Notes under the pieces: model-generated
The model's database searches: none
What the model was told of the DNA's origin: nothing
What the model saw: the letters and a program-made list of their open reading frames with translations, nothing else
Origin: a virus
Lineage: Duplodnaviria > Heunggongvirae > Uroviricota > Caudoviricetes
Virus record (IMG/VR): IMGVR_UViG_2713896787_000017
Direction: 5' to 3' (one strand)
Length of the DNA stretch: 16,070 nt
Position numbers and translations under genes: made by a program
Part shown: positions 10,046 to 11,095 of the stretch, piece after piece
Layout: every line of letters begins with the position of its first letter
How positions within the stretch are numbered: the first letter of the stretch is position 1

Positions 10046-10612
10046 ATGGCTAAACCAGCGCGAAGACGATGTAACCGTAAAAGAGAAGATTTAACTGTTA
10101 AAAGGATATTTGAGTTACTAAGTTTCGATAAATCTACCGGGGTATTTAGATGGAAAGTTCCCACTCAGGGAAGGATAGCATTAAATAGTGTTGCTGGAAC
10201 TTTTGATTCCAACGGTTATTCAATGATCATGATAGATGGGCGTAGATATAAAACTCACGTCTTAGTTTTTTACATAACTCATAATCGTTGGCCTGCTGGT
10301 CAAATTGACCACGTTAATGGAATTAGGACCGACAATAGGCCAGAAAATTTAAGAGAATGCCTGCCAATAGAAAATTCAAGAAATATAAGGATCCGAAAGA
10401 ATAGCAAATCAGGTTGCAGAGGGGTTACTTGGCACAAACGACAGAAAAAATGGAATGTTAGGCTAGGATTCCATGGCAAGAGTAAACACTTCGGATGCTT
10501 TGATGATCTGGAGTTAGCGGTACTAGTTGCTGAAGAAGCCCGAGATAAGTATTACGGTGATTTTTCCGGCAACGAAAGGAGCACTTATGCGAATCTATCG
10601 AAGGAAATGTAA
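10046..10612 (+). CDS. HNH endonuclease with C-terminal AP2-like DNA-binding domain (188 aa), inserted in the ninG 5' end
   Basis: GGAGG Shine-Dalgarno at 10033-10037 then ATG at 10046. The first nine residues MAKPARRRC match the lambda NinG N-terminus before the sequence diverges. HNH-type motif ...[26 protein letters not shown]... and AP2-like segment [36 protein letters not shown]. Confidence 0.8.
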
Positions 10613-11095
10613 ATGTTGCAATGAATGGTTTATACCAAAATATCAAAATCAATATTGGTGTAATGAGATTTGTGGAACCAAGATAGCACTCGAACGACGA
10701 AGTAAAGAACGCGAAAAAGCGGAAAAAGCAGCAGAGAAGAAACTACGACGAGAGGAGCAGAAACAGAAAGATAAACTGAAGATTCGAAAACTCGCCTTAA
10801 AGCCCCGCAGTTACTGGATTAAACAAGCCCAACAAGCCGTNNNNNNNNNNNNNNNNNNNNNNNNNNNNNNNNNNNNNNNNNNNNNNNNNNATGCGTGGTG
10901 TGCAACCAGCACAAAAGCGGAAATCTCGTTCCGTATCGCGTCGAACTGATTAGCCGCATCGGGCAGGAAGCAGTAGAGGAAATCGAATCAAACCATAACC
11001 GCTATCGCTGGACTGTCGAAGAGTGCAGGGCCATCAAGGCGGAGTATCAACAGAAACTTAAAAAACTGCGAAACAGCAGAAGTGAGGTTGCATGA
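10587..11095 (+). CDS. ninG: NinG (Rap)-like protein, interrupted by the 50-N gap; N-terminus rebuilt downstream of the HNH insertion
   Basis: 10587-10840 encodes [15 protein letters not shown]...[24 protein letters not shown]...[11 protein letters not shown] and 10895-11095 encodes [26 protein letters not shown]...NSRSEVA, which match the N- and C-terminal parts of lambda NinG as I recall it. The two parts are in different frames across the gap; about 50 codons are missing. Confidence 0.8.
10841..10890. other. Run of 50 N inside ninG
   Basis: Literal n run; placeholder length, since the missing NinG segment is about 150 nt. Confidence 0.99.

Follow-up and report, generated by a model that had tools for sequence, protein, structure and literature searches.

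An HNH-AP2 endonuclease cassette with a captured ninG start and a replacement ninG 5' end in lambdoid prophages of Escherichia coli

Anatomy of the cassette in ninG

The window analyzed here is a whole stretch of 16,070 nucleotides (nt) from a virus of the Caudoviricetes (IMG/VR record IMGVR_UViG_2713896787_000017), a scaffolded piece of an Escherichia coli prophage that contains gyrA, a lambda-type integrase gene, ninE, an orphan gene, an HNH cassette, ninG, ninI, Q, and lysis genes. The subject of this study is the cassette, a foreign AT-rich segment of 597 nt (10075-10671, plus strand) that was delimited by alignments, guanine-plus-cytosine (GC) content, and a genome survey and that consists of the body of an HNH endonuclease gene and a replacement ninG 5' end. 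Its host gene, ninG, encodes NinG (also known as Rap), the branched-DNA endonuclease of phage lambda. A sequence-only reading of the window had proposed a mobile, homing-endonuclease-like cassette that invaded the 5' end of ninG while keeping it translatable. This proposal is supported by the comparison with lambda, by the family and fold of the protein, and by presence and absence of the cassette between fixed junctions, with homing itself being presumed; all coordinates and sequence strings given in that reading were correct.

The left side of the cassette is built from native ninG sequence. The last ~7 codons of ninF and the ninG ribosome-binding site (GGAGG, 10032-10036), which occupy 10029-10045 on the plus strand and were recognized by alignment with lambda, phi458, and the loci with a ninF context (L009-L011), are lambda-like and now serve the HNH open reading frame (ORF); immediately upstream of this captured start region, the DNA of the window is not ninF but a remnant of an IS911-like insertion sequence (IS). 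The HNH ORF (10046-10612, plus strand; 188 amino acids (aa); TAA at 10610-10612), identified by Pfam, phrog_99, alignment, and a structural model, begins with the captured lambda-type ninG start (10046-10074, plus strand; ATG, codons 2-9, and 2 nt). These 29 nt, ATGGCTAAACCAGCGCGAAGACGATGTAA, are identical to the lambda ninG start at 29 of 29 positions (MAKPARRRC plus 2 nt), as the sequence-only reading had noticed, and are fused in frame to the HNH body; past 10074 the sequence is unrelated to lambda. The HNH ORF has no start of its own; its translation is predicted to rely on what was captured from ninG, namely the ribosome-binding site, the ATG, and codons 1-9. No promoter of its own was found for the HNH gene. 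An alternative GTG start at 9965, which would give a protein of 215 aa, was rejected because ATG 10046 and GGAGG are conserved in all ninF-context loci and the sequence upstream is the IS remnant, which is absent from these loci.

On the right side, a new Shine-Dalgarno sequence (AGGAG, 10577-10581) and an ATG at 10587 for the rebuilt ninG (together 10577-10589, plus strand) were read directly inside the HNH 3' end with the spacing AGGAG-N5-ATG, which bears out the earlier claim that a new start near the HNH stop restores the NinG N-terminus; in complete genomes, the Prokaryotic Genome Annotation Pipeline (PGAP) starts ninG at the equivalent ATG. The rebuilt frame overlaps the HNH 3' end by 26 nt in a different frame. 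It opens with a replacement ninG 5' end (10587-10671, plus strand; 85 nt, codons 1-28) that shows only ~60% nucleotide identity to lambda codons 1-31 and keeps the cysteine pairs (C8, C10/C11, C25, and C29 in the rebuilt protein, NinG', vs C9, C14, C28, and C32 in lambda). From 10672 (TGTGGAACC) onward, ~96% identity with lambda ninG resumes in the lambda-type remainder, the host part of the gene (10672-11095, plus strand), which is broken by a run of Ns in the window.

As the sequence-only reading had suggested, alignment with uninterrupted lambda-type ninG alleles defined both ends of the cassette exactly, the left junction lying after 10074 and the right one at 10671/10672. Since 64 nt of lambda-type ninG (codons 10-31) have been swapped for 597 nt, the event is a replacement and not the plain insertion previously described, although a foreign cassette does lie in the 5' end of ninG. 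Likewise, ninG is readable from its rebuilt start as claimed, and the correction is that the cassette brings its own diverged 85-nt ninG 5' end. The foreign character of the segment is also reflected in its GC content, which is 34-45% in 100-nt windows over 10050-10699 vs 47-53% in the ninG 3' part (10900-11099).

With the new Shine-Dalgarno sequence and ATG, and with the 28-codon spare 5' end joined at 10672, ninG remains a full-length, one-piece ORF despite the cassette, and its product is predicted to retain Rap activity. In the window itself, ninG is interrupted by the N-run at 10841-10890, where 144 nt are missing compared with locus L003, which comes from a complete genome and matches the window identically to the left and right of the gap; owing to this 50-N join and the loss of 144 nt, only complete genomes show the intact 200-aa NinG. 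The L003 protein, identical to that of the window outside the N-run, matches PF05766 with 279 bits over residues 4-194. An intron or intein was considered and rejected because Pfam detects only HNH_3 and AP2 in the cassette, Rfam finds no intron, and ninG is restored by a new start codon rather than by splicing; the Rfam search (E <= 1) covered 9400-11200 and revealed no intron RNA family.

A 14-bp direct repeat bracketing the insert had been taken as a signature of the invasion. The two 14-mers, CGAAGACGATGTAA (10061-10074) and CGAAGGAAATGTAA (10599-10612), are indeed present, with 11 of 14 bases identical, but they are similar because both encode the NinG motif RR(R/K)CK in two ninG alleles; the 933W-type allele has CGAAGGAAATGCAA at this position. 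A comparable 14-mer match occurs in 13% of shuffles of the two 60-nt zones. Given the imperfect match, the homologous NinG codons, and the shuffling result, a target-site duplication was rejected, and so was a transposable element, as the cassette contains no transposase and the repeat is imperfect.

The HNH-AP2 protein

The HNH protein matches PF13392 (HNH_3) at residues 68-107 (42.7 bits, 4.2e-11; cut-off 24.8) and phrog_99 of PHROGs, "HNH endonuclease" (1.4e-71), and its Pfam match to AP2 (22.2 bits, 1.8e-4) stays below the curated cut-off of 33.3. An alignment of 15 sequences (the HNH protein and 14 homologues) shows no variation at D88, H89, N101, L102, R103, and N110. The beta-beta-alpha-metal motif is thus conserved at its catalytic and metal-binding positions, and the protein is a predicted endonuclease; the sequence-only reading had named a lack of catalytic residues as a possible objection, and D88, H89, N101, and N110 are all in place. 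Native homologues begin a few residues before L16 and end near residue 175, which indicates that the NinG-derived N-terminus and the C-terminal tail overlapping ninG' are add-ons.

An AlphaFold2 model of the protein has a mean predicted local distance difference test score of 87.8, with low confidence at residues 1-10 and 180-188 only, and places the invariant catalytic-motif residues in a strand-strand-helix at 86-113. When the N-terminal domain was searched with Foldseek, the best match in the PDB was the HNH homing endonuclease I-HmuI (1u3e). Residues 127-173 are modeled as a three-stranded sheet plus a helix that resembles AtERF1 (1gcc; template modeling score 0.67 on target, root-mean-square deviation 1.3 A over 51 columns), and the AP2 domains of WRI1 and TEM1 were also matched by this region in Foldseek. 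The model therefore points to a C-terminal AP2-type DNA-binding domain that is recognizable by fold and sub-threshold by sequence. A sequence search of the PDB with the HNH protein gave a weak AP2 match only. Virulent phages of Salmonella and Escherichia, among them Jersey-like and T5-like ones, have relatives with 40-44% identity that bear the annotation of homing endonuclease, and the combination of HNH_3 and AP2 has been described as the architecture of a homing endonuclease gene family (PMC10448857). By sequence and fold, the HNH ORF belongs to this family of free-standing homing endonucleases, and a corresponding activity may be presumed.

Distribution, parallel cases and surroundings

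The distribution of the cassette was surveyed in 5426 complete E. coli genomes, and a scan of IMG/VR added 44 HNH-bearing and 36 HNH-less ninG loci; junctions and diversity were compared among 51 HNH-bearing loci with an unshifted HNH frame, and ORF integrity was assessed in 52 loci. The cassette was detected in 538 of the genomes at 571 places, all at least 99% identical, and also in the Shiga toxin (Stx) phages SH2026Stx1 and AU6Stx1; carriers include O157, O26, O111, O103, and O145 strains. It is always followed by ninG and labeled "HNH endonuclease" by PGAP. The sequence-only reading had proposed to look for the same cassette elsewhere, and none was found at loci other than ninG in the genome and phage searches.

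Both junctions are the same in all 51 loci and at all 571 genome places. Among the 51 loci, diversity per 50 nt ranges from 0.000 to 0.011 in the cassette, from 0.002 to 0.10 in the ninG body, and from 0.19 to 0.45 left of the cassette. With a diversity of ~0.3-0.4%, the cassette is several-fold less variable than the rest of ninG (~3%). The ninG bodies of HNH-bearing loci are up to 7.1% apart, which makes them as diverse as HNH-less alleles, with which they are interspersed, and the cassette occurs in at least 14 far-left and six right-hand flanking contexts. The 597-nt unit is thus a low-diversity island with fixed junctions in many otherwise different lambdoid prophages. The HNH ORF is intact in 51 of the 52 loci, the remaining one carrying a frameshift; among the variable HNH codons, 11 are synonymous and 12 non-synonymous, and 10 of the latter are singletons, and the common polymorphisms are mostly synonymous, indicating purifying selection.

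Upstream of the cassette, the IS remnant is present in 33 of the 51 loci and ninF in the other 18. Thirty genomes have the cassette downstream of an intact ninE-ninF, again with an identical left junction, which identifies the lambda-type ninF-ninG arrangement as the empty site, and presence or absence at this one site is polymorphic, the empty lambda-type ninF-ninG having ~98-99% identical flanks. A chimeric query joining the IS-remnant flank to uninterrupted lambda ninG had no single-piece match in the 5426 genomes, and the reverse chimera search identified ninF-ninG as the real empty site. The diverged 85-nt ninG 5' end was never found without the HNH gene in genome, phage, or protein searches: a protein search with the 40-aa NinG' N-terminus yielded fragments of the same allele only, and tblastn with this N-terminus gave ~60% identity at most. 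A partial match of the ninG' 5' end in H170, considered as an alternative crossover point, was rejected because it reflects an IS2 insertion. Similarly, a search of 5.8 billion proteins revealed no HNH protein between 44% and 99% identity, and a scan of GTDB species representatives gave only an unrelated 39% match.

HNH-less ninG genes (L047 with 27 other IMG/VR loci, and L081) have at least three 5' modules, namely lambda-type RRRCKNDECREWF, 933W-like RRKCKICKEWF, and MRKVRRRCKNEECREWF, each of which leads near GGAAC/GGTAC into one and the same conserved body, so that the N-terminus of ninG is a hotspot of mosaicism also where the HNH gene is absent. In phage Sf6 (L007, 1709-2957), IS911 is inserted in ninG directly after GTGTGGAAC, at a point equivalent to ~10680 of the window and within ~10 nt of the right junction of the HNH cassette; the agreement may be coincidental, or this part of ninG may be fragile or favored for insertion.

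A second HNH_3 + AP2 gene, 35% identical, was found in the 5' end of ninB in E. coli TUM1880 (NZ_CP135706.1; locus L009, 784-1476), whose prophage carries both the ninG and the ninB cassettes. Here, the ribosome-binding site and ninB codons 1-32 are identical to lambda and run in frame into the HNH body. Past the HNH stop codon, a new ATG begins a NinB N-terminus that is diverged and AT-rich (MKCVKYHLTNESIRYNAIQYL), and at CAACCGCAGC the sequence becomes lambda-identical ninB again. In total, 597 nt replace 20 nt of lambda; the cassette occupies about 3513364-3513960 of the genome record, and its predicted target would be around codons 33-39 of lambda ninB. In both ninG and ninB, the fusion point lies within a few codons of the start of native homologues. 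The ninB cassette was detected in 8 of the 5426 E. coli genomes and in none of the phage records, and its HNH gene is split by PGAP into a "partial" coding sequence and a full HNH coding sequence. This parallel indicates that the architecture seen at ninG is not a one-off accident. In E. coli 14EC007 (NZ_CP024131.1; locus L010, 2434-3182), a third, truncated HNH_3 gene with its own start (MKNINNIEELRNKL) interrupts ninF near the 3' end, with an upstream ninF copy that has a novel C-terminus and a ninF 3' remnant after the HNH gene; the ninG cassette follows directly downstream in the same prophage. This arrangement looks like a mirror image of those at ninG and ninB. The HNH-fused Orf/NinB proteins reported previously (PMC4118853) were examined as a further parallel and set aside as a different thing, namely a DUF968 C-terminal HNH.

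With regard to the surroundings in the window, the IS911-like remnant of the IS3 family (9615-10029; context outside the cassette), defined by blastn against IS911 of Sf6 and the SEN22 element, is 66-75% identical to these two, internally deleted, and retains both end regions, its right end abutting the last ninF codons. It contains an array of the hexamer TATTTC (9793-9851) with 9.8 copies here vs 17.8 in SH2026Stx1, which indicates a variable-number repeat. Between ninE and the IS remnant lies an AT-rich orphan gene of 590 aa (7706-9558, minus strand; phrog_9230) with no Pfam domain. In the window, the gene falls into two ORFs (7706-8533 and 8572-9558), consistent with a single one-base gap relative to the intact L003 copy; the split represents either a pseudogene or a sequencing error. 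The left part of the window (1-7088) contains gyrA (1-2628), DUF2138, DUF1175, and the lambda-type integrase gene (5083-6153, minus strand), and ninE follows within ~700 nt of the latter, so that the entire prophage immunity and replication region between int/xis and ninE is missing, which points either to a cryptic prophage that has undergone deletion or to an artefact of scaffolding. The scaffolded window contains two 50-N runs (7089-7138 and 10841-10890) and single Ns at 14737 and 14800; the breaks are located in sequence common to several lambdoid prophages, and the contigs flanking 7089-7138 overlap by ~14 nt relative to L003.

Origin, spread and relation to known systems

We favor, with somewhat more confidence than doubt, the reading that the cassette is a free-standing HNH_3 + AP2 homing endonuclease element that captures the ninG start and carries a replacement ninG 5' end, cleavage and homing being putative. 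The enzyme would be made from the pR/nin delayed-early transcript during lytic growth, and its target would be lambda-type ninG without the HNH gene, nicked or cut in or close to the 64 nt (codons 10-31) that the cassette replaces. Repair would then proceed from an HNH-bearing allele, with ninF and ninG codons 1-9 as left homology and the ninG body as right homology, and the cassette would be copied in. In the HNH-bearing allele, the lambda-type 64 nt are absent and both related sequences are altered; because the lambda-type segment is gone, the diverged 5' end carried by the cassette might confer self-immunity by removing the target and would at the same time rescue ninG function. The element was probably founded by cross-lineage transfer, the donor being an AT-rich phage that had the HNH gene directly in front of its own ninG; the left end would have been joined illegitimately and in frame at ninG codon 9/10, as only in-frame fusions could persist. 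The identical junctions in every copy point to one such founding event.

Several points weigh against this interpretation. With a single founding event, later spread could be due to ordinary homologous recombination among prophages; the proposed target site is deduced from the junctions alone, and cleavage and biased inheritance are presumed. The AP2 match is below the Pfam cut-off (22.2 vs 33.3 bits), a few alleles are altered at invariant positions (N101S, P83T) and one is frameshifted, and the median is one cassette copy per carrier genome (maximum three), though ninG copies often co-reside. No donor lineage was found in the searches described above, the nearest HNH protein being 44% and the nearest ninG N-terminus ~60% identical.

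The main rival to homing is that the unit is a passive mosaic module, produced by one illegitimate joining and then distributed by general (Red/RecA) recombination and the clonal expansion of Shiga toxin-producing E. coli, in the absence of any drive and with a nuclease that may be inactive. We regard this as unlikely, though deserving serious attention. The single origin indicated by the junctions, the low copy number in spite of co-resident ninG copies, and the decayed alleles would all be expected of such a module; in addition, 33 of 51 loci have the IS remnant as a common left flank, which suggests that a larger block has hitch-hiked, and ninG, within a strongly mosaic region, is a conserved hotspot of recombination. 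However, a passive passenger fits less well with an ORF that is intact in 51 of 52 loci with mostly singleton non-synonymous changes, with conserved catalytic residues, and with a cassette that is several-fold less diverse than the adjoining ninG body (itself as diverse as HNH-less alleles) and occurs in at least 14 far-left contexts. Moreover, the same architecture arose independently at ninB with a different HNH gene, which is hard to explain without a nuclease-linked process.

It is also conceivable, although we consider it quite improbable, that the HNH-AP2 nuclease has been domesticated and serves the phage, by excluding or degrading competing lambdoid phages or by acting in recombination together with Rap/NinG, and is not selfish. 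Transcription with the recombination genes of the nin region, intactness in ~10% of complete E. coli genomes, and visible purifying selection would suit such a role; nevertheless, the gene is absent from most lambdoid phages and thus dispensable, its family is that of classic free-standing homing endonucleases (PMC10448857), a functional link with Rap was not found, and the spare 5' end is an architecture predicted by a selfish insertion that disrupts its target and not by a partner gene. That there is no separable element at all, the HNH gene being an ordinary long N-terminal NinG variant or an assembly artefact, can practically be dismissed: the window is scaffolded with 50-N joins at 7089-7138 and 10841-10890, but the HNH gene and ninG occupy separate ORFs that differ in frame, each with its own domains, the identical arrangement exists in hundreds of complete genomes and two phage records, and uninterrupted lambda-type alleles fix both junctions exactly. 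The sequence-only reading had itself raised the possibility of an ordinary ninG variant; the module proves to be separable.

Returning to the favored reading of a homing element, the cases at ninG and ninB and the mirrored one at ninF raise a broader idea, which we hold tentatively and at somewhat less than even confidence: lambdoid HNH-AP2 elements may share a recurrent strategy, "start capture with a spare 5' end", in which a borrowed ribosome-binding site and start express the nuclease and a replacement 5' end provides both immunity and the host protein, and which could contribute to mosaic N-termini among nin genes. On the usual view, homing endonucleases are maintained either in intergenic positions or within a gene by means of an intron or intein. 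If true, takeover of the start together with a spare 5' end would be a third solution for their persistence and a protein-level substitute for intron or intein splicing, and it would explain in concrete terms how lambdoid nin genes come to have sharp mosaic boundaries and variable N-termini. The cassette is located just upstream of Q and, in Stx phages, of stx; should it actively drive recombination there, it could influence how the Q-stx region is exchanged. If it is a passive relic, it would still be a useful marker of prophage mosaic exchange and otherwise ordinary.

The HNH gene is already annotated and common; what is new is the architecture and its recurrence, and the searchable literature yielded no description of start capture in combination with a replacement 5' end that is carried along. 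Free-standing homing endonuclease genes with HNH_3 and AP2 domains were reportedly treated by Magnani et al. in 2004. The ninG cassette resembles the IPA-HNH homing endonuclease genes of ICP1, T5-like, Jersey-like, and other phages (PMC10448857), as it has an N-terminal HNH_3 and a C-terminal AP2 domain, belongs to phrog_99, and sits at a boundary of genetic exchange. Unlike those genes, which are mostly intergenic with starts of their own, it is intragenic, has lost its own start, uses that of the host, and carries a replacement 5' end. It also differs from the known IPA-HNH genes in residing in temperate lambdoid prophages.

Free-standing endonucleases of T-even phages, such as SegG, SegF, and MobE, are responsible for intronless homing and marker exclusion. 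As in those systems, a free-standing nuclease gene lies beside its presumed target and the nuclease-bearing allele differs at the target; co-conversion of flanking sequence on transfer is a further T-even feature, which for the ninG cassette is proposed only. In phage T4, such nuclease genes are intergenic and the target gene is neither split nor rebuilt, whereas here ninG has lost 64 nt to the replacement and a 29-nt remnant of it forms the beginning of the nuclease gene. Friedrich et al. reportedly found in 2007 that insertion of mobE splits nrdA of Aeromonas phage Aeh1. Both arrangements place an endonuclease gene within a coding sequence and keep the host function with neither intron nor intein; in Aeh1, the host protein consists of two assembling pieces, whereas a one-piece NinG is predicted from the spare N-terminal segment, and the upstream piece is reduced to nine codons fused to the nuclease.

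An N-terminal fusion is also seen in gene 31 of Salmonella phage epsilon34 (PMC2629481), which differs in belonging to another HNH lineage with relatives in Gram-positive phages, and no rebuilt copy of the host gene is described in that paper, though none was looked for here. Finally, the "hidden" out-of-frame HNH of ShiLan in a mycobacteriophage methylase gene (PMC11855218) is similar to the ninG case in that a coding region has received an insertion, the host protein is functional without splicing, and the nuclease is translated in an unorthodox way; in ShiLan, the host reads through in frame with an extra loop and the HNH is encoded in another frame, whereas at ninG the host gene is restarted downstream.

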